Part shown: piece by piece, positions 1,940 through 14,066 of the stretch
How the letters are laid out: the number at the start of each line of letters is the position of its first letter
How positions within the stretch are numbered: position 1 is the first letter of the stretch
NCBI GenBank assembly: GCA_036679605.1
Contig: JAZDCZ010000311.1
Location: 1-19,913 of the forward strand
Source: Gemmatimonadota bacterium
GTDB lineage: Bacteria; Gemmatimonadota; Gemmatimonadetes; Gemmatimonadales; GWC2-71-9
Length of the DNA: 19,913 bases
Reading direction: 5' to 3'
The notes under the pieces: generated by a model
What the model was told of the DNA's origin: nothing
Seen by the model: only the letters and a program-made list of their open reading frames with translations
The model's database searches: none
Made by a program: the position numbers and the translations under genes

Positions 1940-4291
1940 ATGTCAACGCATGTTCGGTTTGGTAGTTCCAGCTTCGCGCTGGCAGTTCTGGTACTCGTAC
2001 ACTTGGCTGCCCCTGCCGTATCCAGCGGTGAAGCGGAGCCGGTGCCCACCGCGTCGGCCGTCAAGAGCAACCGCGTCAAACCGCTTCCGTGTGCATCCGG
2101 ACGCTACCAGGTAACGGGCGCACCGCTCACGGCGGGCCAAGGGGCTCCCACCGCCGACGTGCTGGAAATCGGGCGGAGTAAGACCGCACTGCCGGGCATC
2201 TGTGGTCCCGTGCCCGCAAAGAGGTTCAAGGCCCGCAGGAGGGGGGGGGGCTTCACGAGGGTCAGGGTGAAGTGGGACATCGGTGCGTGCGCGGGCTTCG
2301 TCGGTAGGGTGAGGCTCACCGGAAAACTCGTGGACGGCTGCACCCGGCTCGAGGGCAGGCTCAAGGCGCGCAAGTTCAGGCAAAAGTTCGAGGCCCAGTC
2401 AGTTCCCCTGGAAACGCCGGTGATCACCAGCATCAGTCCGACGCAGGGCCCCATCGGCACAGAGATCACGATCATCGGCGAGAACTTTGGAGAGGTCCAG
2501 GGCGATAGCGTCGTCACCTTCAACTCCATCGAGGCTGTACCGGCCTTCAGCGGGCTCGGCGATGCTGGTCCGGACAACGGGGAAGCGGTCCTCGGCAAAG
2601 ACATCCTCATGTGGTCTGACACGGAGATCGTTGCCAAGATACCCGCGGGCGCCGTCACCGGCGATCCGGTCTTGAACTCCCCGATGGCGATCGGCGAGGT
2701 GATCGTCTCCCGCGGCACGTGGAAAGAGGTGACCCTGCCTCGCTTCCCCGAATACGGCGGAGATCAGTTGACCGTGACTATGCCGATCCTCAAGGACAGC
2801 AATGGTGTGCGGTTCGACACGATCGGCTCGATTACCTTGCCCAACGGGGAGACGAAAACGGTCGACGAGATGATCGTGATGGGACGCCTGCTTGCGACCA
2901 CGGCGACATTCGGCAATGAGCTCTTGTGGACCCCGAGTGTCCACAGCCGCTGCGACGGAGCCACCGGTGTGTGTGTGGACATCCCGTTCAAGAATTGCAC
3001 AAACGACGCCGATTGCAGGGGCGAAGGCGTGCCCTTTACCCGGGACATCGACCTGAACGACGACGGGCGCATTGACCCCTTTCCCACCGACCTGCCCGGG
3101 GGGTTTCTGGGAAACCCCGAAGCTGCCGGTCTGATGCCGGATCCTTTTGCGCAGACGGACCTGGGGGGGGGATGCCCGGGATGCGGAAGGCTCGACCTCG
3201 CCGGGCCGGGAGCGGTGGAGAATCGGTCGTCTGGCTATGTCGGTCTGCGTGCGATCACCGGTTCGGATGGGGTCGTGCGCTACGGAACCAACTGCGCCTT
3301 CTGCCACGCCGGGCCGGACCCGATCACAGGGATGCCCGTCGGGGGGATGGCCAACCCCAACATCCGGCTCGACTGGTTTACCGCGTTCTCCGAGCAAGTA
3401 ACGGAAGCGGATATCAATGATCCCATTTCGCCGTCGCGTAAGGAGATCGCCCTGCTGTGGGGGCCGGGCAAGATTGATCTCAACTTCCAGCTGGCCGGGA
3501 GCCTCGCGAAGGACCAGTCATTCTCCGTCCCTAACCATACCGGGTCGACGGGTTTCACCCGCTGGTTCTACGTTGGTGACCTGTTTCCGTGGCCACGGGA
3601 AGCCTGGATGGCCAGGCGCCGCGACCGCGAGATCATCGAATTCGTTCGCAACTTCGGTGCGGTCATTGCCTGGGGCGGGACCGTGGCTTGGACGGCGGAG
3701 GCACAACAGAAGCTGGGTGTCATCACCGGCCTGGGGCTCTACATGCATGCGGCCCAGACGAAGGCTAGGCGGCTGACAAACCCCGATATAGACCCGCAGG
3801 TAGCCGACCGGGGAAGACGGGTCTTCGAAGAAGCCGATCTAGGCGGCGGTCTCCGGTGCGCTGACTGCCACTCCCCTCACCTCCAGAGGTACACCAATGG
3901 GATGATCGTTCCGATCAGCGTGGTCGGGACCGATCCCCGCCTCGCCTTCGACAACTATCTAGATGACAACGGTCCATTTGGTGGTGGCCTGGCCACCAGC
4001 GATTTCTCCGGCTTGTTCGCGTATTTTCCGGGCGAGAGCAACCCCGACATTCGCGGATACCGGGTGCCAAAGCTGGTCAACCTGTTCGCCCGGAAGCGCT
4101 TCCTTCACGACGGCGCTCTAGCGACACTGGAGGAACTCTTCGAGACAGATCGACTCGCCCCGAGCTTTGTTGCCACTGGAACGCCGTCCGAAGCGGACGT
4201 TGCCGGCGTGGGTGTTACCGGACATCTGTGGGGCACAAACCTCTCGGCGGAAGACAAACAGGACCTAGTGGAGTTCCTCAAGACCCTGTGA
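1940..4291 (+). CDS. Secreted multidomain di-haem c-type cytochrome (RoxA / cytochrome c peroxidase-like fold) with an IPT/TIG domain
   Basis: Signal peptide; IPT/TIG 'PVITSISPTQGPIGTEITIIGENFG...WSDTEIVAKIP'; haem motifs CAFCH (3293-3307) and CADCH (3857-3871). The C-terminus 'GYRVPKLVNLF...FLHDG...GHLWGTNLSAEDKQDLVEFLKTL' is RoxA-like. GGGGGA RBS. Confidence 0.85.
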   Translation: MSTHVRFGSSSFALAVLVLVHLAAPAVSSGEAEPVPTASAVKSNRVKPLPCASGRYQVTGAPLTAGQGAPTADVLEIGRSKTALPGICGPVPAKRFKARRRGGGFTRVRVKWDIGACAGFVGRVRLTGKLVDGCTRLEGRLKARKFRQKFEAQSVPLETPVITSISPTQGPIGTEITIIGENFGEVQGDSVVTFNSIEAVPAFSGLGDAGPDNGEAVLGKDILMWSDTEIVAKIPAGAVTGDPVLNSPMAIGEVIVSRGTWKEVTLPRFPEYGGDQLTVTMPILKDSNGVRFDTIGSITLPNGETKTVDEMIVMGRLLATTATFGNELLWTPSVHSRCDGATGVCVDIPFKNCTNDADCRGEGVPFTRDIDLNDDGRIDPFPTDLPGGFLGNPEAAGLMPDPFAQTDLGGGCPGCGRLDLAGPGAVENRSSGYVGLRAITGSDGVVRYGTNCAFCHAGPDPITGMPVGGMANPNIRLDWFTAFSEQVTEADINDPISPSRKEIALLWGPGKIDLNFQLAGSLAKDQSFSVPNHTGSTGFTRWFYVGDLFPWPREAWMARRRDREIIEFVRNFGAVIAWGGTVAWTAEAQQKLGVITGLGLYMHAAQTKARRLTNPDIDPQVADRGRRVFEEADLGGGLRCADCHSPHLQRYTNGMIVPISVVGTDPRLAFDNYLDDNGPFGGGLATSDFSGLFAYFPGESNPDIRGYRVPKLVNLFARKRFLHDGALATLEELFETDRLAPSFVATGTPSEADVAGVGVTGHLWGTNLSAEDKQDLVEFLKTL

Positions 4292-4391
4292 GATGGCGGG
4301 GCGCACGCCGCAACCGCCACGGAGTGCAGCTTCGCTCGAGGCGCAAACGGCCGGGCGACTCGATCATTACGGATGCCGGGGGCTTTGTATT

Positions 4392-5540
4392 ATGAAACGT
4401 AGCGCCAACGTCTTTCGCGTGCTTGCAGGAACCGCGGTCGTTCTGGCGTGTACCGTCCTGGCTAAGGAGAGCCACGCGCAATTTACCACAGACGAGCTGA
4501 AGTGCAGGCAAACGATCGCGAAGAGCGGTGCAAAGCTTGCCGGCACCATTGGGAAGGTCCAGTCGCGCTGCCACAAGGACCGGCTCAAAGGCAAGGTGCC
4601 GGTGACGACCGAGTGTAACGATACCGCGCAAGCCGATACCAAAAACAAAATCCAGAGGACCAAGGACAAGCTGCGCGATCGCGTGGCGGGACCGAGCGGC
4701 AAGTGTACCGGGTTCAACCCGGCCTCACTTTCCTACTACAACTGTCCAGCGCCCTGCGACGCGCTGGTCCCCAGTCTTTCCGACTTCACGGACGTGGGCG
4801 AGTGTGTGATTTGCCTCGTCGAAACCGCGGTATCCGAGATGGAATCGATGGCCCAGGGTGCGCCGACGCCTCCCGTGTCCAAGGATGACGGCAAGTGCCA
4901 TAGAACAATCGGCAAGCGCCAAAACAAGCATCTCGCAGTCATTCTCAAGGAACGTACGAAGTGCCAGAAGCGTGAGGAGAAGAACGGGGCTACGACGACG
5001 ACGACGTGCTCGGGGGCGGATCCGAAAGGCAAGATCACCGCGGCCCGTACCAATGGGGAGAACGGAATCGCCACGAGCTGCACCGCGGCCGTACTGGCCG
5101 CGGTCGATTCGTGCAGCGTGGTGTCCATTTCCGAGCTTCAGATGTGTCTTTTCAGCGACTCAGACACGCGTGGCGAGGAAATATTCCAGATGTTCTATAG
5201 CCTTGGGAACGCTAGCTGGACACAGGTGATGGACGTCTTTGCCACCACCGGCTGCAACTCGCCGATTTGTCACGGTGGTATAGGAGCGTTTGGTGGCCTC
5301 GGCGGCCTCGACGACTTCAATGCCGGTCACGCCAACCTGGTCAACGCGCCGGTGCAGTGCCTTGGCAGTAGTTTCGCGTTGCGTGTTGTGCCAGGCGATT
5401 CCGCGAGCAGCTTCCTGATGGCCAAGCTCGACGGCACACACGACTGTGGGGTCCGGATGCCCTTTGCGGGGCCCCCACTATCGAACACCGACCGCAACGC
5501 GATTCGCGATTGGATCGACGCCGGAGCGCCGAAAGACTAG
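4392..5540 (+). CDS. Secreted protein with two Cys/Lys-rich helical repeats and a C-terminal mono-haem cytochrome c-like domain (CX4CH)
   Basis: The likely start ATG 4392 gives a signal peptide (MKRSANVFRVLAGTAVVLACTVLAKESHA). Repeats: 'KCRQTIAK...SRC...D.KNKI' and 'KCHRTIGK...TKC...DPKGKI'. CNSPICH at 5253-5273 is followed by 'VVPGDSASSFLMAKL...RMP...L...I.DWI.AGA'. Confidence 0.8.
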   Translation: MKRSANVFRVLAGTAVVLACTVLAKESHAQFTTDELKCRQTIAKSGAKLAGTIGKVQSRCHKDRLKGKVPVTTECNDTAQADTKNKIQRTKDKLRDRVAGPSGKCTGFNPASLSYYNCPAPCDALVPSLSDFTDVGECVICLVETAVSEMESMAQGAPTPPVSKDDGKCHRTIGKRQNKHLAVILKERTKCQKREEKNGATTTTTCSGADPKGKITAARTNGENGIATSCTAAVLAAVDSCSVVSISELQMCLFSDSDTRGEEIFQMFYSLGNASWTQVMDVFATTGCNSPICHGGIGAFGGLGGLDDFNAGHANLVNAPVQCLGSSFALRVVPGDSASSFLMAKLDGTHDCGVRMPFAGPPLSNTDRNAIRDWIDAGAPKD

Positions 5541-5595: not shown

Positions 5596-5688
5596 AGCCC
5601 CGAGGCGTTTGAACGCGCCTCATGATGAGGCTTCGGTTTGTCTACGGGATCGGGGGAAGTCCAATAGTTAGCCGATGCTGCGAGGCGG

Positions 5689-5697
5689 TGTTAACGT
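5689..5697 (+). promoter_or_regulatory. Extended -10 promoter, probably giving a leaderless antitoxin mRNA
   Basis: TG-T-TAACGT lies 7 nt before ATG 5705, with no Shine-Dalgarno in between. Confidence 0.45.
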
Positions 5698-5704
5698 AGT
5701 GTCC

Positions 5705-5905
5705 ATGAATCGGGTAGAATCTATTGAGAAAGAGATCCGAGCTCTCTCGCCAGAAGATCTAGCCACGTTACGGGAGTGGTTTCTTGAGTACGACGCCGCG
5801 GTATGGGACCAGCAGCTTGAGCAGGACGCACACACTGGCCGTCTCGAGGGGCTTGCGGAAGAGGCGGTCGAAGCTTACCGGAAACGGAAAACCACTGAGC
5901 TTTGA
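5705..5905 (+). CDS. Putative antitoxin (small acidic protein)
   Basis: MNRVESIEKEIRALSPEDLATLREWFLEYDAAVWDQQLEQDAHTGRLEGLAEEA..., a familiar partner type for ParE-like toxins. Its TGA overlaps the toxin TTG start (TTGA, 5902-5905). Confidence 0.82.
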   Translation: MNRVESIEKEIRALSPEDLATLREWFLEYDAAVWDQQLEQDAHTGRLEGLAEEAVEAYRKRKTTEL

Positions 5906-6156
5906 AGCACGTCGCCTCACCTCGGTTCTGGGCGTGCTACCACGCACTACCGCGTGAGATCCGAACCCTTGCAGACGAGAAATTCACGTTACTGAAGAGT
6001 GCTCCAAAACATCCGTCATTACACTTCAAACGAATCGGATCTCTCTACTCGTGTCGGATCGGCTTGCGATACCGAGCTCTCGGTACTCCGATCAACGACG
6101 GCGTCGTATGGTTTTGGCTAGGAACGCATGCTGAATACGATCGACTCGTCGGCTAA
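5902..6156 (+). CDS. ParE/RelE-superfamily toxin
   Basis: 84-aa basic protein 'FWACYHALP..I...A...F.LLK..P.HPSLHFKRIG.LYS.RIG..YRALG......WFW.GTH.EYD', translationally coupled to the antitoxin. Confidence 0.88.
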   Translation: MKHVASPRFWACYHALPREIRTLADEKFTLLKSAPKHPSLHFKRIGSLYSCRIGLRYRALGTPINDGVVWFWLGTHAEYDRLVG

Positions 6157-6257: not shown

Positions 6258-6825
6258 TTACGGCGCTACCCGCTGCTGCGCTCCCGAGGTGACAAGACGC
6301 GGGCCCATTTGAATTCCGTCAACCGGCATTCCATGCAGATCGTTGGCATCAAGAACCGTGACGCTGAAGTCGCCTTCCTGAAGTTGTTTTGCAGCGGCAA
6401 ATCGACAGCTTACGGCATCGGTAGGCCCATCGAGTCCGGCAATCGAAATAACACCAACGTTAAGCCGCAGTCCGCGCGGCCCAACGGAAAGATTGAAGGC
6501 GACAAGACTTTCCGATCCACCTGCCGGCAGCGCAAAGCAGTCCACTAACGAACTGACCGCAGAATCAAAATCGACCGCGAACTGTAATGTCCCGACAGAC
6601 ACGGTATTTAAAACTCTGAAGAACACGGCCTGTGGCAGGTTAGATCGCACTGCCCGCCAACCGCGCAGTTGAGGTGAGCAACTCACCTGCAACATTACAT
6701 TGATCTACCGTGCAAGCGCTTCCTTCGTCCGCACACGTCGCTCCGGCAAAGCCGGTGCATTGTTGCGATGATTCATCGCAGAGCACATTGCAATCTTCAT
6801 TCAGCCGACACGGATCCCCCGGATC
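6258..6825 (-). pseudogene. 3' remnant of a secreted Cys-rich repeat protein with a C-terminal cohesin-like beta-sandwich; frameshifted and 5'-truncated
   Basis: 'GDPCRLNEDCNVLCDESSQQCTGFAGATCADEGSACTVDQCNVAGE' joins 'CSPQL...GTLQFAVDF...DC...LVAFN...VGVISIAGLDGPTDAVSCRF...GDFSVTVLDAND' if one base near 6680 is removed. No signal peptide or credible start. Confidence 0.65.
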
Positions 6826-7558
6826 CAGATGCACAAGGAATGCCTACTCCAGTCGGGACTGGGTTCTTCGTCTCGCCCGATGGCTGGTTCGCGACTGCTG
6901 CCCATGTCGTAAAGGACAAGGATGGGAACGTCCGTAATGACATTTCCAGTGCCTGGCTCCCGAAGAAGCAGGCCGCGGACCTTGTTGGCGCGATGTGCGA
7001 GGGTGTCTCGTTCGACTACATCAATCCGCAATGGGACATCGTTCTGCTAAGAGTCGACTTTGCGAAAAACAAGGACAGGGAATGGCTCAAGGGTAAGAAT
7101 TTGTTCCCGTTCATCGAGGTCTCTCGTCGACAACTGGAAGAAGGCGAACCTGTGTATTCCTTCGGATACCCGTTGTCGGAGGCACGTACCCAATAGCAGT
7201 CAGGGTTGATCGTTGGCGAAGTGTCCCTCAGTCCGAGGGTAACGTCGGCAATCGTGTCCTCTACGCTCGAGAAAACGAAGATGCTGATGTCGAGCGGCGA
7301 CGAGAAGATCTACGTCCTCGACAAGGCGCTCAACTATGGGAACAGTGGCGGACCCATTGTGGCCGCCGAGACTGGCAGAGTGCACGCGCTATGCTCTCGG
7401 TTTCAGCCGGTGATGGTCCCGAGCCGCACCTGACTGGTTCTGGAGGCAAGCAGATCGCTATCATAACGCCAAGCCTGTACGGGATCGTCCTTGCTCTGCA
7501 CAATCCAAGCATCCTGAAGGCCTTCAGTGAAAGATCAATTCCGACGACAGCAGCATGA
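6819..7558 (+). pseudogene. Trypsin-like (S1) serine protease pseudogene, a former integron cassette gene
   Basis: GTGFF, TAAH, DIVLL, GYP and GNSGGP motifs are all present. In-frame TAG at 7194-7196. A frameshift near 7421 is followed by 'PHLTGSGGKQIAIITPSLYGIVLALHNPSILKAFSERSIPTTAA*', ending at 7558, 4 nt before an attC. Confidence 0.88.
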
Positions 7559-7562
7559 CTCT

Positions 7563-7627
7563 GCCCAACAAGGCAATGCAGACAGACGGCCGTTTCGCGG
7601 CCGCCACTGATTGCCATGGCGTTTAGT
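7563..7627 (+). mobile_element. attC integron cassette recombination site (65 bp)
   Basis: Inverse core GCCCAAC (7563-7569). GGCAAT[G]CAG (7572-7581) pairs with CTGATTGCC (7607-7615), leaving one extrahelical base. Apical stem CGGCCG-TTTCG-CGGCCG. Core GTTTAGT (7621-7627) has one mismatch to GTTRRRY. Confidence 0.8.
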
Positions 7628-7636
7628 GACGTGCAT

Positions 7637-7760
7637 ATGGTCTCCACTTGGTATTTTGAACCCTCTGCGATAAACGCGTTCGCGGAAGGGCGAACTGTCC
7701 AGGACGCTGTCGCAACCAGGGCGTTCCAGGAAGTACGCGGTCGACGCTGGGTGATTTCCT
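7637..7760 (+). pseudogene. 5' fragment of the next cassette gene, PIN-domain-like N-terminus
   Basis: ATG lies about 10 nt after the core site. 'MVSTWYFEPSAINAF...RRWVIS' resembles PIN strand 1 (hhD/ExS) and strand 2. The sequence then degenerates (ORF stops at 7867). Confidence 0.4.
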
Positions 7761-8121
7761 TGGGAGACTTCGGCCACCTTGGAACCGGTTCCCGTCCCGG
7801 AGCGGCCGATCAGACCCCCCTGGCGCTCAACCGCGCTGTCGCACTAGTACCGCGTGATGACCGGTGAGGGCGCATATCCGAGGACGAGGAAGAAGATGGG
7901 TTTGAGACATATCGTACCGGCGAAATGGAGGAGTCCATAGGTCGATTTCGAGACCGAATCTCGTGCTAACGAGAAACACCGGTGAGCCTGCCGAGACCGT
8001 CCCAATCGTTTACGATCGGTGGGCGTTCTCACGGGTCGCTTATTCCCACCTCGAAGTTGATAGCTGTTGCCAACGTAAGATGGCTGAACACGATGTTTGC
8101 TTTCCCGCGTATATGAGCTCT

Positions 8122-10533
8122 TCAGCCGCTCCTATGGAATGTAGCCGTCGAGGTGACAAGCGCATTTTGGGAGCTCCGATCCAAGTAGACGCTGCCGTTC
8201 CTCCATTCGTACTTCGTTGAGAAACGGTTCCCTCGCCAACGCCATTTCTGCGCCTCTCTCATGACGCCTGGGGCTTCAGTAGGTGTGGCTATCCAAACTA
8301 GTTCCCCTACATAGAATCCCATGTCTCGCGACCCGCGCCCCTGTCTGGTCAAAACCCCCTCATATCGGTTCCTATCGACGTTCCAAGTAACCCGCATATG
8401 GTAAAAATTATTCGCGATTTGAGCTTCCCACTCCCCAATCAAGGATAGACCGTAAACCCGTTCTACTTGGTTACGCTGGGTTTCGGTACCTGATGCGGCC
8501 AAGCTTGTGACGGTACGTCGTTCGCTGTGGGTCGCCGGCCGTGAAGACGGCGAAGCTTCCTTGAAAACTATGCCCGAGAGTTTTTTGCGCTTGCCATCGC
8601 GAAGGACCACCAAGGCAACCCCTTTGTTAATCGGAGTTTTGGCGACAATCGACGCCAGTTCCGAAGGCTGACCGACCTCTTTGCCGTCGAAGCGGACTAT
8701 GACATCGCCGATTTTGACCCCGGCCTCGGCGGCCGGGCTGTCGTTAAAGACTCTGGCGACCAGAGCGCCCTTGACCGCAGGTAAGTTAAAGGCTTTTGCA
8801 ACCTTTTCATCGACCGGTTGCATCAAGATACCTAGCCATCCACGCGTAAGGCGACCGTGGTCTTCGAGGTGAGGGACCGTCGAGGTATCAGCCGCCGGGT
8901 CTAGGACTACCGAGTCATTCCAGATATCATACGTCGGGTTTGAAACTACCGTGTCATCCAAGGGCTTCAGTCGAGTTGTTTCAACGGTCTCTTGCGCAGC
9001 CTGCGCAGTAGCTTTCGGTCGCAACGCGCGCGTCGTTTTGCTGTAACTCGGTGACTCTCTCGGTTGCTTTTCGCCTGGGACACCCTCATCGCTTGACGTC
9101 GATTTCGAGCCTAAACTCTTGGTTTCTAGATCATTCGGGGGATTGGCTGTCGGGCTCTCGCGAACTGAATCGAAAAACATATAGCGGTCGATCGCGACCA
9201 TCCCGCCCACTGTGAGAAGCGCGACGATTGTCCCGGCAGCAAGCCACGCGAGCGGTCGCCTTGAGGGCTCGCCGTTGCCCCAAAGCTGCTTTGCCTCTTC
9301 AACGCTGTCAACTCCGGCACAATCAACTCCCCGCTTGGATGCGACTTTGACAAGGCGATCATATTCCGCCGCATCCGAAGTGCCCCGGCGAGGAACATTT
9401 GCCGCGGGGTAGAGAAACATCCCTGCTCGCCGATCGGCTATTACGATCTTAAGTTTTTCAAGTAACCCGCCAATTTTGCCCACTTGGCCCTTACCATCAG
9501 GAAGAATTTCACCCGTAGCATAAATCACATTGGGACGTTTCTCGCCTCGCCCGAATCGAGCAAGCTTGTCTGCTATTGCCAACGCGAGTTGATAGCTGTT
9601 CTCTTCGAAATTGCTGCTGAGCCAAGATACTACGACACCTTTCTTATACGATCGAGCTTTGCGCTCGCCGAACCGCGCTTCGAGGATAGCGTCACTACAC
9701 GCCTTACAATTGACGGCACCAGTCACCGTGATGTCTCGCGATGGGCCGTCGTGCAACTCGCATGTAACAGAGTTTAGACTACCGCCGTTCTCCTCATTGC
9801 CGTGGACTACTGGGAAATAGACGGTAGCACGGCCAGGGCCGCATGCGGTCGCCACCGAGTGTGGCTTGCCAGCAGATGACCCAGCGTTGTCGTTCCCGAA
9901 GCCGGAGCGTTGCTCGTAGGATCCGGTCGTCCTATCGGTGGCTCGTGTCTCCGCTGCTTTACGAGGGTTCTCGCTACACGCTTCGGTTTTTCGCGGGAAG
10001 CGAGCTTCGACTTGATCGCGGGACGAGAAAGCCGCGGCAGCTGAGTTATGTAGTTCGGCTTGGAGCTTCTCACTGTCCTTCCCTGCTGGACCACGTGCTG
10101 CAGCGACCGCAATATTTTCAAGCAACGTCCCTATGGAATCCAGTGCACGGGCCAGATGTCGATCAGTCAGATCGGGAGCACCGCCATCAACGTGGCCAAC
10201 TACGTTTCGGATAGCTTGAACCAGACTTAAACGGCCTATCGTCGCTCGTTCTGGCGGCCCGTCGAATAACCGCTTCCAATCGCGTCGCAAGAGTTTACAA
10301 AGCAACTGCGCGTCCCAGACCACTTGGCCATCGCGCGGGTACATCTCGATATTCTGCTTGAAAAGGTCTTGCCTACCTCGATCTTGCGGCCACGACGCAT
10401 CCCCGATAAACGTTGCCCAACTTTTTCCGTAAACTCGTTCATAGGCGAAAAACAGGAGATTCTTTACCGGGCCCGCAAAGAAATCATTCACCGCGTTCCA
10501 TTGAAATATGTAGTTTGGCCTTGACGTAAACAT
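8122..10533 (-). CDS. Membrane-anchored fusion: Swt1-like HEPN / Lon-type (S16) Ser-Lys protease / TM / DegP-type PDZ / C-terminal beta domain (about 803 aa)
   Basis: HEPN: 'WDAQLLCKLL..DW..LF...IRNVVGH...D...RALDSI..LL' with Rx4H at 10209-10192. Lon-like: 'NSYQLALAIA...YATGEI...G.VGKIGGLLEKL...FLYPAAN' with Ser at 9597-9595 and Lys at 9456-9454. TM at about 9252-9190. PDZ: 'HGRLTRGWLGI...GALVARVFNDSPAAEAGVKIGDVIVRFDG...VLRDGK' at about 8877-8563. ATG 10533 is preferred over 10647 because it avoids overlap with the upstream gene. Confidence 0.88.
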   Translation of the reverse strand: MFTSRPNYIFQWNAVNDFFAGPVKNLLFFAYERVYGKSWATFIGDASWPQDRGRQDLFKQNIEMYPRDGQVVWDAQLLCKLLRRDWKRLFDGPPERATIGRLSLVQAIRNVVGHVDGGAPDLTDRHLARALDSIGTLLENIAVAAARGPAGKDSEKLQAELHNSAAAAFSSRDQVEARFPRKTEACSENPRKAAETRATDRTTGSYEQRSGFGNDNAGSSAGKPHSVATACGPGRATVYFPVVHGNEENGGSLNSVTCELHDGPSRDITVTGAVNCKACSDAILEARFGERKARSYKKGVVVSWLSSNFEENSYQLALAIADKLARFGRGEKRPNVIYATGEILPDGKGQVGKIGGLLEKLKIVIADRRAGMFLYPAANVPRRGTSDAAEYDRLVKVASKRGVDCAGVDSVEEAKQLWGNGEPSRRPLAWLAAGTIVALLTVGGMVAIDRYMFFDSVRESPTANPPNDLETKSLGSKSTSSDEGVPGEKQPRESPSYSKTTRALRPKATAQAAQETVETTRLKPLDDTVVSNPTYDIWNDSVVLDPAADTSTVPHLEDHGRLTRGWLGILMQPVDEKVAKAFNLPAVKGALVARVFNDSPAAEAGVKIGDVIVRFDGKEVGQPSELASIVAKTPINKGVALVVLRDGKRKKLSGIVFKEASPSSRPATHSERRTVTSLAASGTETQRNQVERVYGLSLIGEWEAQIANNFYHMRVTWNVDRNRYEGVLTRQGRGSRDMGFYVGELVWIATPTEAPGVMREAQKWRWRGNRFSTKYEWRNGSVYLDRSSQNALVTSTATFHRSG

Positions 10534-10549
10534 GGCGCCTATGCCTCTC

Positions 10550-11143
10550 TCATTTCTCCTGGCTCGGCTCGAAGGTTCCCATGCCTTCGATATCCAGTCG
10601 GATTCCATGTTCATGAGCCCTGTCCACCGGCGATATTCCCGGGTCATTCCAAATTACCCCTATTTGACAGGTATCGTCGATGGCGCCCTTCAACCATTCC
10701 CGACCGCCCGTATCTACAAGGCGCACTTTAGTTCGGCGTGGGAGCTTTCCTGCTATCTCCCGTTCTATCTTTAGGGAAACTACCCAGCGCGGTGCATCCG
10801 ACTGGGTCCTAAAACACGACACCGAATAACCGTTCCCTTTGATGGTTACGGGACCTTGACCCGCCGCGGCACGCAGCCAAACCACCTCACCGTGCCCCTC
10901 GTCCTGCCAATACCGGCGCGCTTCTTGAATCATTGTGTCTCGCGTCCGCCAGAAGGCCTCGCGTGACGCGCGGCACTCCCAGAGCATCTGCTCTTCCTGA
11001 AAAGAAAAAGGCGGTCCACCCTCGAGCACTTGGCGGATCCGTTCTGCGCTCAGCCTCGCTTCGGATCGCAGGGGCTGACCAGCCAAAGCATCAAATAGAA
11101 TTTCTAGTTCAACGTCTTTCATAGTCCAGTCCTTGAGAGTCAT
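10550..11143 (-). CDS. Putative soluble anti-sigma-like protein / protease substrate (197 aa)
   Basis: ATGA overlap with the upstream gene at 11140-11143. The helical N-half 'LSAERIRQVLEG...EEQMLWECRASREAF' resembles a degenerate anti-sigma domain. LRAAA at 10876-10862 precedes a beta-rich C-half; no TM. The CDS is solid, the function is inferred. Confidence 0.6.
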   Translation of the reverse strand: MTLKDWTMKDVELEILFDALAGQPLRSEARLSAERIRQVLEGGPPFSFQEEQMLWECRASREAFWRTRDTMIQEARRYWQDEGHGEVVWLRAAAGQGPVTIKGNGYSVSCFRTQSDAPRWVVSLKIEREIAGKLPRRTKVRLVDTGGREWLKGAIDDTCQIGVIWNDPGISPVDRAHEHGIRLDIEGMGTFEPSQEK

Positions 11144-12081
11144 CGTGAATTTTTCGAAACAGAGGTGATGACTTTCTCCATCGCTATTGTTTGGCATACA
11201 ATTGCCCGCGCTTGTTCAATCCTTGCACGCAGTTGGGCTCTCGTTACTGCGAACTCCGCCATGTAGTCTTTCTGCCTGTATGGTACGTCCGTGAAGACGC
11301 CTCGCTTAACCGTTGTTGCCAATGCGAGAGCAAGTTCCGGGTGCTCCACATATAGGCGCCTGAGAATGGCTTTTGCGCGTGCAGAAAAATGCGGGCTAGC
11401 GTGGACCAATTCCCCCATATCGTTAAGATTGCGTTCTCGGCAATCGGGACAGAATTCGCGAAAGTAAGACTCCAACGTGACCATTGTCGTGGGCAGATTG
11501 TGTCTCGACGCGTCGTCGATCTGCTTGATACGCTCCAGCACCCTCTCGATATGGTCATCCTCACATGCCTCACCGGGACCAAGCTTGTGCTTATCAGCAA
11601 GTTTGCTGCTGAGTAGTGCGATCTTCATCTCCCACCCCCTTCGTCGGTGGGGTTTCCCAGGGAGCACGCGTAGCCGTTGTTTGTCTAAATAGGATTTCAG
11701 GATCTGACCAAGCGCCTGTCTCGCAGTGAAATCCATATGCCCCGATAGTGCACCCCGTTCACGGTCCGCTGACAGCAGTTCCGTGAGGCGATCGATGTCA
11801 CCAAGAAGCCCAATTGCATCGTCTGCGCCATAGGCGCAAAGGTGTGGCACGATCCCGGATATCCATTTATCTACCTTCTCACGCAGCAATGTCCCATCGC
11901 CTGGATGAGCCGCCGCTTGAATTACAGCCGCAGCGTCGTCGACGCTGAACGATCCAAAAGCTGCAGCGACGACCCTGCTTCTTATGTGTTTCCATTTTGG
12001 ATAGTCCGAAAGTGGATCCATACCCTCTCCCTTCCTCAGGGCCCGGCGCTCCTGGTGAGATCCGGGCCCTTTGAGCAACAC
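11140..12081 (-). CDS. Divergent sigma-factor-like protein with a C-terminal sigma4-like HTH
   Basis: GTG 12081 follows a GGGGGAG RBS (alternative ATG 12021). All-helical character; the C-terminus 'ILRRLYVEHPELALAL...RQKDYMAEFAVTRAQLRARIEQARAIVCQTI' fits the sigma70 region-4 pattern; internal CPDC. The CDS is solid, the function is inferred. Confidence 0.55.
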   Translation of the reverse strand: MLLKGPGSHQERRALRKGEGMDPLSDYPKWKHIRSRVVAAAFGSFSVDDAAAVIQAAAHPGDGTLLREKVDKWISGIVPHLCAYGADDAIGLLGDIDRLTELLSADRERGALSGHMDFTARQALGQILKSYLDKQRLRVLPGKPHRRRGWEMKIALLSSKLADKHKLGPGEACEDDHIERVLERIKQIDDASRHNLPTTMVTLESYFREFCPDCRERNLNDMGELVHASPHFSARAKAILRRLYVEHPELALALATTVKRGVFTDVPYRQKDYMAEFAVTRAQLRARIEQARAIVCQTIAMEKVITSVSKNSR

Positions 12082-12085
12082 CTGA

Positions 12086-12871
12086 TTACTCCCCCTCGAT
12101 GCCTGACTCAATGAATTTCTCAAAATCGCGCGTGTTGCGGCTCGTAGAGTTCCCGAGCGATTCCATATTGTCGAGATTGGCCAAGATGTCTCGGGTGGTA
12201 GTGATAACCGACTGGTTGTCCAGAAGGTTTACATTTCCCGCAGATAGCGTGTTTTGGATCTCCTCTAGCCGTTCGGTGATATCGACGTGGGTGCTTGAGG
12301 CCCTGAGAGACTCGATCTCGGCGGGCAACAGCTCTCGCTGAGACGTAATGTTCGCCTTGGTGATCGCGAGTTCGTCCGCCTTGCGTTTCAGCTTTTCGTA
12401 CAGCTGTGTGGCATGGTGGAGCTGCCGCTCGATGTGAGGACGTTCGTCAAACAGCAGTTTGACCTGAGATTCGAAGATCGAAAAGCGTGGGTAAGTTCGA
12501 CCCGCGAACTCGACCGGACTGTCGGGGCTAGCCTTAGCGTCCGGATGAATCGATCGTGCCTCACTCAAGAGCCGCTTGTTTTTTTCTGCGAGCAGGGAGT
12601 GTTCAGCGACGATGTTGTGGACACGCTCGACTTCACGTCGAAGGCGAGCTCCAGCTACCGCGAGCTTCGCCTCAGCCTCTCGCAGCTCTCGAAATCGCGT
12701 TTCCAGGCACGGGATGGGAAAGCGAGAACACCTGCTGGCTGACCAGCCAAGAAGCTGGTAGCCCAAGGACGCGCTACGCTGGAACATCTCCGGAGCGAAC
12801 GCATGGATACCGGCAAAGGTGACCATGATGGTCAAGAGTGCCACCACTATAGGTCCTACTGATCGTTTCAT
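12086..12871 (-). CDS. N-terminally anchored or exported long coiled-coil protein, PspA/IM30-like
   Basis: AAGGAG RBS 6 nt before ATG 12871. Hydrophobic N-terminus, then 'RFPIPCLETRFRELREAEAKL', which resembles PspA 'EDP..L...+.++'. Two long heptad helices are separated by 'PVEFAGRTYP'. Confidence 0.6.
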   Translation of the reverse strand: MKRSVGPIVVALLTIMVTFAGIHAFAPEMFQRSASLGYQLLGWSASRCSRFPIPCLETRFRELREAEAKLAVAGARLRREVERVHNIVAEHSLLAEKNKRLLSEARSIHPDAKASPDSPVEFAGRTYPRFSIFESQVKLLFDERPHIERQLHHATQLYEKLKRKADELAITKANITSQRELLPAEIESLRASSTHVDITERLEEIQNTLSAGNVNLLDNQSVITTTRDILANLDNMESLGNSTSRNTRDFEKFIESGIEGE

Positions 12872-12938
12872 CATTATCTCCTTCATGGTCGACAGGTTTA
12901 CGTTCGGGCGAATCGACCAGTTGTTTTTGTCTGCCCGT

Positions 12939-13328
12939 CTACTTCCTACCTAGGAGGGAAAAATTTCCTGCAAGCCGCCAAATGAGAAAAAATGTGGTTC
13001 GCAACACACGGGGCACAAACCTGCAAACGGCGCCAAGAAAGTATGTAACTACTGCGCCAAGTACGTGTCCCGCGCCTTCATAGCCTAGCGTCGTGGTGAG
13101 TAAGCCGCGTACGAGCACGAAGAATATTCCCAAAAATAGGAAAACCTTGACCCAGACGGGCAAGGTCTCAAGCCACACGCGGCCGGTGGCCGTCCCGGTA
13201 AAGACGGCCAAAGCCGGTAGTAGGCCGAGCACAAAGGCCATTCGTAGGCGGTGGGCCCAGAGCGCTGTCGCCGTGGCGGCCAGCAAGGCGCAGGTAAGCC
13301 ATATTGGTATCGAGTTCAGTATAGACAT
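12939..13328 (-). CDS. Small integral membrane protein (about 4 TM helices), first gene of the operon
   Basis: GAGGAAGGA RBS before ATG 13328 (the ORF track starts at 13427). The protein is almost entirely hydrophobic with an Arg-rich C-terminus. Confidence 0.75.
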   Translation of the reverse strand: MSILNSIPIWLTCALLAATATALWAHRLRMAFVLGLLPALAVFTGTATGRVWLETLPVWVKVFLFLGIFFVLVRGLLTTTLGYEGAGHVLGAVVTYFLGAVCRFVPRVLRTTFFLIWRLAGNFSLLGRK

Positions 13329-13409
13329 TCGTCCTTCCTCATCTCCCTTGGTCTCATTGAGTTCCTTGGTGGGAATTTCGGTTAAATTGGCGACAAAAGG
13401 AGAAAAAGT

Positions 13410-13450
13410 CGGAGACTGATGTTTCATGGATTTTCCGGAGTCTGATTTTT
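13410..13450. repeat. Imperfect 15-bp direct repeat upstream of the operon
   Basis: CGGAGACTGATGTTT (13410-13424) and CGGAGTCTGATTTTT (13436-13450); 13/15 identical, 26-bp period. Confidence 0.55.
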
Positions 13451-13612
13451 GGAGTTTAGAGCTGCTGGCCGTAGGAGGGCAGCATGGCCTCGGTCGACAC
13501 CCAAAACCGGCTATAGAGACGTCGACCGATACCGGCAGTGCGTCAATCGCGGATCAGCCGGCGATTGCGCCCGGCCGAGCACCGTAGGCCAGCGCGTGTT
13601 AGCCCTACTGAG

Positions 13613-13730
13613 AGATCATCGAGCAGGGTGCACAGGCCTTTCGTCGGCTTGGCGGCGCCACGCGCACCGTCGTGCTCGACAATCTGCGCGAGGGCGTGCT
13701 CACCCCCGACCTCCACGACGCCGAGATCAC
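13613..13730 (+). pseudogene. istA: IS21-family IstA transposase internal fragment
   Basis: Manual translation gives RSSSRV, then after a frame change QAFRRLGGATRTVVLDNLREGVLTPDLHDAEI, the region around the second catalytic Asp of IstA. Confidence 0.72.
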
Positions 13731-13736
13731 CTGTAT

Positions 13737-13815
13737 ACCGAAAAGCTCCACGAGTGGGAGAACGACTACAACTACTACCGTCCCCGCGGCGCACTTGATG
13801 GACAAACCCTCGAGC
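13737..13815 (+). pseudogene. IS481/IS3-like transposase C-terminal fragment
   Basis: 'TEKLHEWENDYNYYRPRGALDGQTL' matches the integrase-core end W..xYN..RPH.AL.G.TP. Confidence 0.72.
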
Positions 13816-14066
13816 CACAGTCGCTAGGACTCGGGCGCTCCTTCTTGCACCGCTAGTCGGTGGATGTGGCATCCGCCGCAACGGCGGCGTTTCTTATTAA
13901 TTCCGATCGGCTGTTCGGCGCCTGCGAGGGCGCGATATACCCCAAAAGCGGCAAATTTCGCTGCATCCGGGCACCTTGCCCGTGCCTAAACCGCTCCCCT
14001 AGTGACATATCCGGTGGCATGCGGATTGCTAAACACTGACGGTAGAAGCTGCTGAAGCAAAACACC

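Follow-up and report, generated by a model that had tools for sequence, protein, structure and literature searches.

A putative membrane-anchored Lon protease encoded with a candidate soluble anti-sigma protein and a sigma-like factor in a Gemmatimonadota contig

The stretch of DNA analysed here, referred to as the window, comprises positions 1 to 19,913 of contig JAZDCZ010000311.1 (19,913 nucleotides; assembly GCA_036679605.1), which is listed under a Gemmatimonadota bacterium. A gene on its minus strand (8122..10533) encodes a protein of 803 amino acids, called here the receptor, in which a HEPN domain, a linker, a Lon-type protease domain, a transmembrane (TM) helix, a second linker, a PDZ domain and an orphan C-terminal domain follow one another. 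The receptor is probably part of a three-gene transmembrane module, in which a membrane-anchored, ATP-independent Lon protease frees a sigma-like factor from a soluble anti-sigma protein upon clustering. The adjacent genes, one for a protein with a conserved Ala-Ala pair and one for a protein with a sigma region 4, give the protease a likely substrate and a likely output. The design is known from CRISPR defence, where CalpL, CalpT and CalpS form a type III system of SAVED-Lon protease, anti-sigma protein and extracytoplasmic function (ECF)-like sigma factor, and it is probably used here without CRISPR. The starting points are observed features, namely the domain content, the Lon fold, the conservation of the catalytic dyad and of the Ala-Ala pair, the gene order and the lack of CRISPR in the flanks examined. 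The public contig is identical to the window over 7500-14000, with even depth, and may itself be the source of this DNA.

The gene trio and its two smaller members

The gene for the putative soluble anti-sigma protein and protease substrate (197 amino acids; 10550..11143, minus strand) ends 16 nucleotides before the receptor's ATG at 10533, and is itself preceded by the gene for a divergent sigma70-like protein (293 amino acids; 11140..12021, minus strand), whose stop overlaps the next start codon as ATGA. Scanning with a single Lon motif yielded 23 loci from genomes and 22 from metagenomes, several of these 45 being near-duplicates and not independent cases; the named ones belong to Alphaproteobacteria, Gammaproteobacteria and one Desulfatiglandales metagenome-assembled genome. 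In 41 of the 45, the gene immediately upstream of the Lon gene is a homologue of the 197-residue gene. Three of the other four loci stop at contig ends, and in the fourth, L006, the Lon gene is an additional copy with no TM helix, the same genome carrying the trio at another place. The homologue of the 293-residue gene precedes the small gene in 37 of the 41, with three misses at contig ends and one, L035, that is unexplained.

The small gene is also present in 21 of 23 loci outside the profile-building set and is found by BLASTP with the window's own 197-residue protein in 20 of 22, whilst leave-one-out profiles recover the window's own three proteins with E values of 1e-44, 3e-32 and 2e-40. 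The three genes form a conserved trio, which the picture of a receptor standing alone with two effectors, as drawn by the initial annotation from the sequence of this gene, did not take into account. A reverse search from the small protein added one further locus (L084), with all three genes present, which is too few for a test. A word-indexed search with the 197-residue protein alone returned only the protein itself, reflecting the sensitivity limit of that method. Pairwise identities of the three genes correlate over 22 loci (Spearman 0.33-0.56), but this is not used as support because kinship alone gives it.

No array-like repeats occur in the window or the 45 loci, and no Cas family is represented among 137 flanking open reading frames from 26 loci (flanks of 6-8 kb, some contigs being short; the 137 are a selection from 175 listed frames, supplemented with some alternative ones). 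Envelope genes are the most frequent neighbours: in 12 of the 26 loci a CsgG/FlgO-like, DUF4384, caspase or OmpA gene lies alongside.

The 197-residue protein is modelled as four helices, a linker and a beta-sandwich, with a predicted local distance difference test (pLDDT) score of 88. Its linker contains the motif L90-R-A92-A93-A94 (10862-10876, minus strand), of which the Ala92-Ala93 pair is kept without exception in 48 of 48 non-redundant homologues. LAA and RAA predominate, the residue before the pair being Leu in 29, Arg in 13, Met in three, Gln in two and Lys in one. As the third position varies, a cut after the Ala pair must tolerate varied P1' residues. The beta domain aligns with CalpT10 (8b0u_C) over 73-74 of 76 residues (Z 4.2-4.6, root-mean-square deviation (rmsd) 3.6), which places the first residue of CalpT10 (195) at position 93 or 94 of the model, and three of the four matches to the helices on their own are the anti-sigma domains of RsiW, RseA and PupR (Z 3.7-3.8). 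Taken alone these Z values prove nothing, because they are low and generic sandwiches score higher; they are valued because they agree with the gene order and the motif.

HxxxCxxC is the motif of the zinc anti-sigma (ZAS, zf-HC2) domains. It is absent from the alignment of the small proteins, in which no Pfam zf-HC2 match was obtained either, and hhalign of the family against 14 ZAS domains of the host gave E values of 0.02-0.05 only. The idea of a zinc-less ZAS domain in exact register was dropped, as hhalign placed the weak match elsewhere. Complex prediction for the 293- and 197-residue proteins gave 0.54, with 0.02 for the best of three controls, a value rated weak by the tool; the scoring mark is reached by 116 of 157 solved and two of 215 mismatched pairs, and at or below 0.60 by only 18 solved pairs together with both mismatches. 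At least 74% of the contacts are shared between the runs, and the partner pLDDT is at least 80.

The 293-residue family ends in what profile comparison identifies as a sigma70 region-4 helix-turn-helix: its C-terminus matches region 4 of RpoD and RpoS among the PDB profiles (E 0.002-0.004), and 15 of the 25 matches listed are sigma factors. Aligned by hhalign with 26 ECF sigma factors of the host, the family scores E 2.7e-4, the 14 controls giving 0.23 or worse. NCBIfam matches of family members are mostly to sigma-70 models. The window's protein is matched in the ESM Atlas at 0.96, and its neighbours there include Sigma70_r2 clusters at 0.94, the best clusters being mostly unnamed.

The receptor and its Lon family

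The ATP-independent Lon (S16) protease domain of the receptor extends over residues 233-420 (9274..9837, minus strand), with the catalytic Ser at S313 (9595-9597, minus strand) and the catalytic Lys at K360 (9454-9456, minus strand), 47 residues apart. An AlphaFold model of residues 1-455, made from a 17-row alignment, has a mean pLDDT of 74 and consists of a helical domain, a disordered linker (pLDDT below 50 at residues 182-232), an alpha/beta domain and an isolated C-terminal helix. The modelled Lon domain matches Lon proteolytic domains in Foldseek at E 2e-7 and superposes on that of Escherichia coli Lon with Z 17.4 and rmsd 3.0 over 171 aligned residues (VIA); by the same comparison Lon, RadA and ComM domains score Z 16-19, and CalpL 13.8. 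A profile of 30 Lon domains matches Archaeoglobus fulgidus Lon at E 4e-5 with the catalytic Ser and Lys in register, and CalpL around the catalytic Ser at E 0.011. No AAA+ domain is detected in the receptor by Pfam, by NCBIfam or in the model, and in this absence the protein is unlike the ATP-dependent LonA and LonB proteases. The Ser...Lys pair in a Lon-like context and the missing AAA+ domain had both been read from the letters by the initial annotation, and both readings are borne out.

An exhaustive search with the Lon domain matched 109 clusters, of which one (P0076) was dropped as a spurious 40-residue match, so that family counts of 109 given here are the 108 remaining clusters plus the receptor itself. 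A word-indexed search with residues 1-460 had returned nothing among proteins of similar length, which is a limit of its sensitivity, since the exhaustive search did find matches. The Ser is kept in 107 of 109 members and the Lys in 106, at a spacing of 43-54 residues. The residue two positions before the Ser is Gly in 98, Asp in eight, Glu in two and Ala in one, and in the receptor it is E311 (9601-9603, minus strand). The active-site stretch reads FSGKSYQLAVA in CalpL and FEENSYQLALA in the receptor, the former matching the family consensus, and by this comparison the family carries the active-site motif of CalpL. The CRISPR-Lon model of PADLOC is matched by 21 of 30 family members, at best with 5e-6 and over the Lon part only. 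It had been cautioned from the outset that the Glu might alter the protease. The Glu is confirmed and the caution stands in a softer form, with an acidic residue at this position in ten of 109 members; the Glu leaves some doubt about the proteolytic activity of this particular copy.

In a FastTree phylogeny of the Lon domains the receptor is not part of the main HEPN clade (14 of 16 members with HEPN, support 0.87) but joins three tandem-Lon proteins with support 0.81. These three (P0087, P0103 and P0105) are soluble; each has two Lon-like domains in tandem, and the Ser motif is present in the second. One of them, P0103, had been wrongly placed in the HEPN alignment and is not counted as a HEPN protein. 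Fusions of Lon with a vWA domain that lack a TM helix are found at L028:1516-3048, L031:5863-7365 and L045:76-1311, and those of L028 and L031 sit in the same three-gene set.

The single TM helix is predicted at residues 430-448 (9190..9246, minus strand), the only Kyte-Doolittle window of the receptor above 1.6 (hydropathy 2.03). The initial annotation had placed the N-terminus inside the cell on account of the basic residues ahead of the helix. In the receptor itself the charge bias is only 3 versus 2, and the topology is instead suggested by the family: a TM helix follows the Lon domain in 92 of 109 proteins, and Lys and Arg are more numerous before it than after it in 72 of these, the reverse in seven and equal in 13. 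With that orientation the PDZ domain (residues 553-656; 8566..8877, minus strand) would be extracytoplasmic. Its presence after the helix, annotated earlier, is verified by Pfam PDZ_2 at 49.7 bits, and its best PDB matches (E 3e-24) make it a domain of the DegP/MucD type. Since Pfam PDZ is found in none of the 108 homologue clusters, it is regarded as an accessory part of the family. A chimeric assembly or a recent duplication of a host degP gene was considered and set aside, as the PDZ domain is only 35-39% identical to the host paralogues, has no DNA match elsewhere in the genome and lies in a stretch spanned by one contig.

The Trp-rich C-terminal domain (residues 696-803, with six Trp; 8125..8448, minus strand), a putative beta domain according to the initial annotation, completes the receptor, and no relatives of these last 108 residues were found in any search made. 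The parts that follow the TM helix vary across the family, and include DUF4384, Sel1, peptidoglycan-binding, TPR and FGE-sulfatase-like domains, helical repeats, a stalk, or nothing at all. Of the 108 family members, 38 have a disordered stalk that ends in a short conserved motif. This periplasmic tail has the form hydrophobic-E/Q/K/R-S/P-x6-8-Tyr/Phe-COOH (P0003-P0047 group; L019:7866-8750) and resembles a peptide ligand for a partner, for instance the CsgG/FlgO-like neighbours.

At the other end of the receptor, a Swt1-like HEPN domain is predicted at about residues 8-147 (10093..10512, minus strand). It contains the motif RNVVGH at R109-H114 (10192-10209, minus strand), which sits at the end of a helix in the model and is the sole Rx4-6H of the protein, in keeping with the intact Rx4H of the initial annotation. 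The HEPN assignment made there is likewise upheld. Pfam HEPN_Swt1 matches the receptor at E 9e-4 and 20 bits, under its gathering score of 27.5, and a profile built from 14 homologous N-termini, the receptor left out, matches it at E 3.8e-5, the best of 200 shuffles reaching 0.005. Fold comparison with VIA gives Z 7.0 for the C-terminal domain of Swt1 and 6.9 for the HEPN protein AF0298, in a range where unrelated helical bundles also score. A HEPN domain with R-x4/5-H is predicted at the N-terminus of 15 other family clusters; among the homologues three pass the Pfam HEPN_Swt1 cut-off and four more match below it. The single-chain architecture that had been called unusual is therefore real, but it is not a one-off: HEPN-Lon-TM is by domain prediction a recurring architecture, of which the version with a PDZ domain is so far unique. 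HEPN, like PDZ, is an accessory part, because most members of the Lon family lack it.

The proposed switch and its competitors

In the resting state, as the complex prediction weakly suggests, the helical N-terminus of the 197-residue protein would hold the sigma-like protein. A cue at the envelope would then cluster the receptor, and to judge from the family to which the DegP-type PDZ domain belongs, the cue here is probably the exposed C-termini of envelope proteins. By analogy with CalpL and CalpT, the clustered Lon domains would cut the 197-residue protein after Ala92-Ala93, the new ...LRAA end would act as a ClpXP degron leading to destruction of the N-terminal half, and the freed sigma-like factor would transcribe neighbouring envelope genes. 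The genome contains clpX. In the HEPN-bearing sub-family, to which the receptor belongs, the same clustering would join HEPN ribonucleases (RNases), with RNA cleavage and growth arrest as a second output. Hence the earlier proposal that ligand-driven clustering switches on cytoplasmic effectors survives in its clustering part, but not as a stand-alone receptor with two effectors, for it had missed the conserved partners.

The steps have precedents. In the accessible text of the respective reports, CalpL cuts CCaCalpT at LAA/A, the LAA end being a degron needed to free CalpS (10.1101/2024.05.08.593097), the P1 residue of SsCalpT is A194, at which only Ala or Gly should fit (10.1101/2021.12.06.471393), and CalpL needs oligomerisation for its activation (PMC11417357). 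The likeness to CalpL, CalpT and CalpS extends over an ATP-independent Lon with the same active-site motif, a neighbouring partner of two domains, in which a putative Ala cleavage site directly precedes a small beta domain, an adjacent sigma-like gene, and the proposed oligomerisation trigger and Ala-Ala degron. There are differences, too. The receptor has no SAVED match in Pfam or PADLOC, and a TM anchor with an outside sensor takes the place of the cyclic-nucleotide sensor; no CRISPR array or cas gene is found near the trio loci (flanks of 6-8 kb); the small partner, at 180-200 residues, lacks a MazF-like domain; the sigma-like protein, of about 300 residues, matches no ECF model; and the receptor family has an optional HEPN fusion.

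With the DegS-RseA-sigmaE system the receptor shares an HtrA-family PDZ domain as the likely envelope sensor, and the 197-residue protein is proposed to share with RseA the destruction of an anti-sigma factor by ClpXP via an Ala-Ala end, the VAA end of RseA being described in the consulted portion of one preprint as leading to this fate (10.1101/2024.05.08.593097). Unlike DegS, the receptor would span the membrane as a combined sensor and protease with the protease inside, and is of the Lon and not the trypsin type, whilst the candidate anti-sigma protein, unlike RseA, is soluble and would not need a site-1/site-2 cascade. In the Csx29-Csx30-CASP-sigma and SAVED-CHAT/PCaspase systems, as far as the available accounts go, protease, substrate and sigma factor are likewise encoded together, and DUF4384, present in Csx30 variants, recurs in the Lon family as ectodomain or neighbour; the proteases there, however, are caspase-fold, soluble, and linked to CRISPR or CBASS. 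Ire1 is activated by clustering. It offers an analogy only, in which no homology is claimed, being in the accessible part of its description (PMC3710099) a single-pass receptor with a cytoplasmic RNase of the HEPN superfamily (KEN), with a kinase in place of the protease. No description of a membrane-anchored Lon/anti-sigma/sigma module or of a HEPN-Lon-TM fusion was found in full-text searches of the accessible literature.

A bolder proposal is put forward tentatively, the odds being somewhat against it. The trio may represent a separate class of bacterial signalling, in which a single cut by a clustering-activated cytoplasmic Lon destroys a soluble anti-sigma protein and releases sigma factors of an unclassified group. 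The input would be determined by ectodomains that can be exchanged, and the forms with HEPN would link an adaptive transcriptional output with an RNase on the same polypeptide, as in Ire1 of eukaryotes; the CRISPR CalpL/T/S system would be a derivative with SAVED replacing the membrane sensor. If the proposed switch is right, the CalpL/T/S logic would belong to a broader signalling design as one of its branches and would not be a CRISPR oddity, and there would be a route from envelope to sigma factor needing neither a membrane-bound anti-sigma protein nor intramembrane proteolysis. About 108 unannotated protein clusters, in a family that includes cultured strains of Bradyrhizobium, Caulobacter, Sphingomonas and Thiocapsa, would acquire a named substrate, cut site and output. 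Moreover, engineered receptors could make good use of a protease that is gated by clustering, recognises a short, defined site and has an exchangeable ectodomain.

Several observations weigh against the release of a sigma factor by a membrane-anchored Lon protease. The best fold matches of the Lon domain include the non-proteolytic C-terminal domain of RadA (Z 18.8) and ComM (17.8), and the receptor has Glu where 98 of 109 family members have Gly. The N-terminal domain of CalpL, which is seated on CalpT10 in 8B0U, has no counterpart in the receptor, and an earlier prediction that CalpL itself is transmembrane proved wrong, as the accessible part of that report states (10.1101/2021.12.06.471393). 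By the threshold used, 17 of 109 family proteins lack a TM helix, although several are short or truncated and some are the soluble vWA or tandem-Lon forms. In the small protein, the Ala pair is followed directly by Asp, Ser or Thr in 13 of the 48 homologues, Foldseek with the model of the window's copy gave nothing at E <= 0.001, and CalpT10 ranks 29th and 35th, under generic beta-sandwiches (TRAF/MATH and SOD, Z 5-6.2). For the sigma-like protein no sequence match to region 2 was found, the region-4 match covering some 60 residues at the C-terminus, and no Pfam or NCBIfam family is matched by the 293-residue protein of the window itself. Finally, at seven loci (L011, L013, L015, L016, L025, L026 and L047) the Lon protein stops just past the TM helix. 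Ligand binding by an ectodomain is on this account not a universal trigger, and clustering may often come via a partner protein. The trio is intact in these loci where the contig allows.

The strongest competitor is compatible with the same chemistry and alters the purpose: a breach of the envelope by a phage or competitor would cluster the receptor, HEPN would halt growth and the sigma-like factor would induce defence genes. The closest characterised relative is, after all, a CRISPR effector, and the module is rare and patchy, with no case besides the seeds in 400 genomes of the host bin's phylum, in 400 of the class of the L010 genome or in 400 of the phylum of the L019 genome, and presence in five of 93 genomes of the order of the L013 genome, few candidates having been scored per genome in these scans. 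In the window the module has a G+C content at third codon positions of 0.54-0.65, compared with 0.67-0.85 in its flanks, and is bordered by a weak integrase remnant on one side and a ParE-like toxin on the other; near some other loci there are genes for an integrase, UvrD, a DUF4011 helicase, Abi_2 or a nuclease. Such a role is possible but rather unlikely, in view of the envelope genes that are the commonest neighbours (12 of 26 loci) and of the many family members, indeed most, that have no toxic domain. Moreover, no PADLOC family passes for the partner genes, and no match to the module was found in viral contigs, plasmids, phages or PHROGs.

It is unlikely that the 293-residue protein is instead a DNA-binding regulator with a sigma4-like helix-turn-helix, a repressor or activator that cleavage of the partner would switch. 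Region 4 is indeed all that matches, the N-terminal 210 residues belong to no recognisable family and the best Atlas clusters are mostly unnamed, whereas the mostly sigma-70 models among the NCBIfam matches, the Sigma70_r2 clusters among the Atlas neighbours and the likeness of the partner's helices to anti-sigma domains speak for a sigma factor. The chances are a little poorer still for a family that works as proposed but with a copy here that is impaired or decaying, in which Glu311 spoils the substrate groove and the receptor is mainly a PDZ-gated HEPN RNase. The Gly replaced by Glu311 is common to 98 of 109 members and CalpL, the window's 197-residue protein departs from the near-invariant P58 and A60, and a stop-interrupted trypsin gene lies downstream; on the other hand, the five reading frames are intact and tightly spaced, S313, K360, T340-G341, A92-A93 and R109/H114 are all kept, and Asp or Glu takes the place of that Gly in ten of 109. 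Self-cleavage by the Lon domain that would set the HEPN RNase free, with the neighbours only regulating expression, is very improbable, for although Ala runs follow the HEPN domain (residues 145-147 and 165-168) and the disordered linker comes after them, the runs lie in predicted helices and are not conserved in other HEPN-type proteins, and the majority of the family, although devoid of HEPN, retains the dyad and the Ala-Ala partner.

Upstream genes and surroundings

Two further genes of the run precede the trio. The first encodes a small hydrophobic membrane protein of 129 amino acids (12939..13328, minus strand) whose membership is uncertain and of which no homologue occurs in the fetched loci. 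It is followed by the gene for an exported or membrane-anchored coiled-coil protein of 266 amino acids with an N-terminal hydrophobic segment (12086..12886, minus strand), a candidate co-sensor or target gene. A homologue of the latter lies upstream in all five HEPN-type loci fetched, placed divergently in L041. Its assignment as PspA was not accepted, one of six members matching at E 0.009. Between the coiled-coil and sigma-like genes of HEPN-type loci there are also secreted-looking, beta-rich proteins with no Pfam match (L007:3477-5498, L034:1783-3928, L008:5091-5702 and L010:5069-5680), which are candidates for the regulon.

Neither repeats beyond chance, nor an Rfam match, nor a sigma70-type promoter was found in the DNA under study. 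The genome bin measures 6.7 Mb, compared with 2-4.6 Mb for the listed relatives, and has a contamination of 6.3%, and the assignment of the contig to this host is uncertain. Just upstream of the operon lies the weak integrase-core remnant (13449-13856; rve_3, E 0.04). On the plus strand, 1940-5540 encodes a 783-residue IPT/TIG and cytochrome c protein and then a Cys-rich protein of 415 residues, which has a CxxxxCH-like heme motif and no family match. A 76-residue gene overlaps the ParE-like toxin gene at 5675-6156 (plus strand), the two probably forming a type II toxin-antitoxin pair. The trypsin-like peptidase gene (6768-7433, plus strand) has its in-frame stop at 7194-7196, and the motif of the catalytic Ser is found in the second piece.

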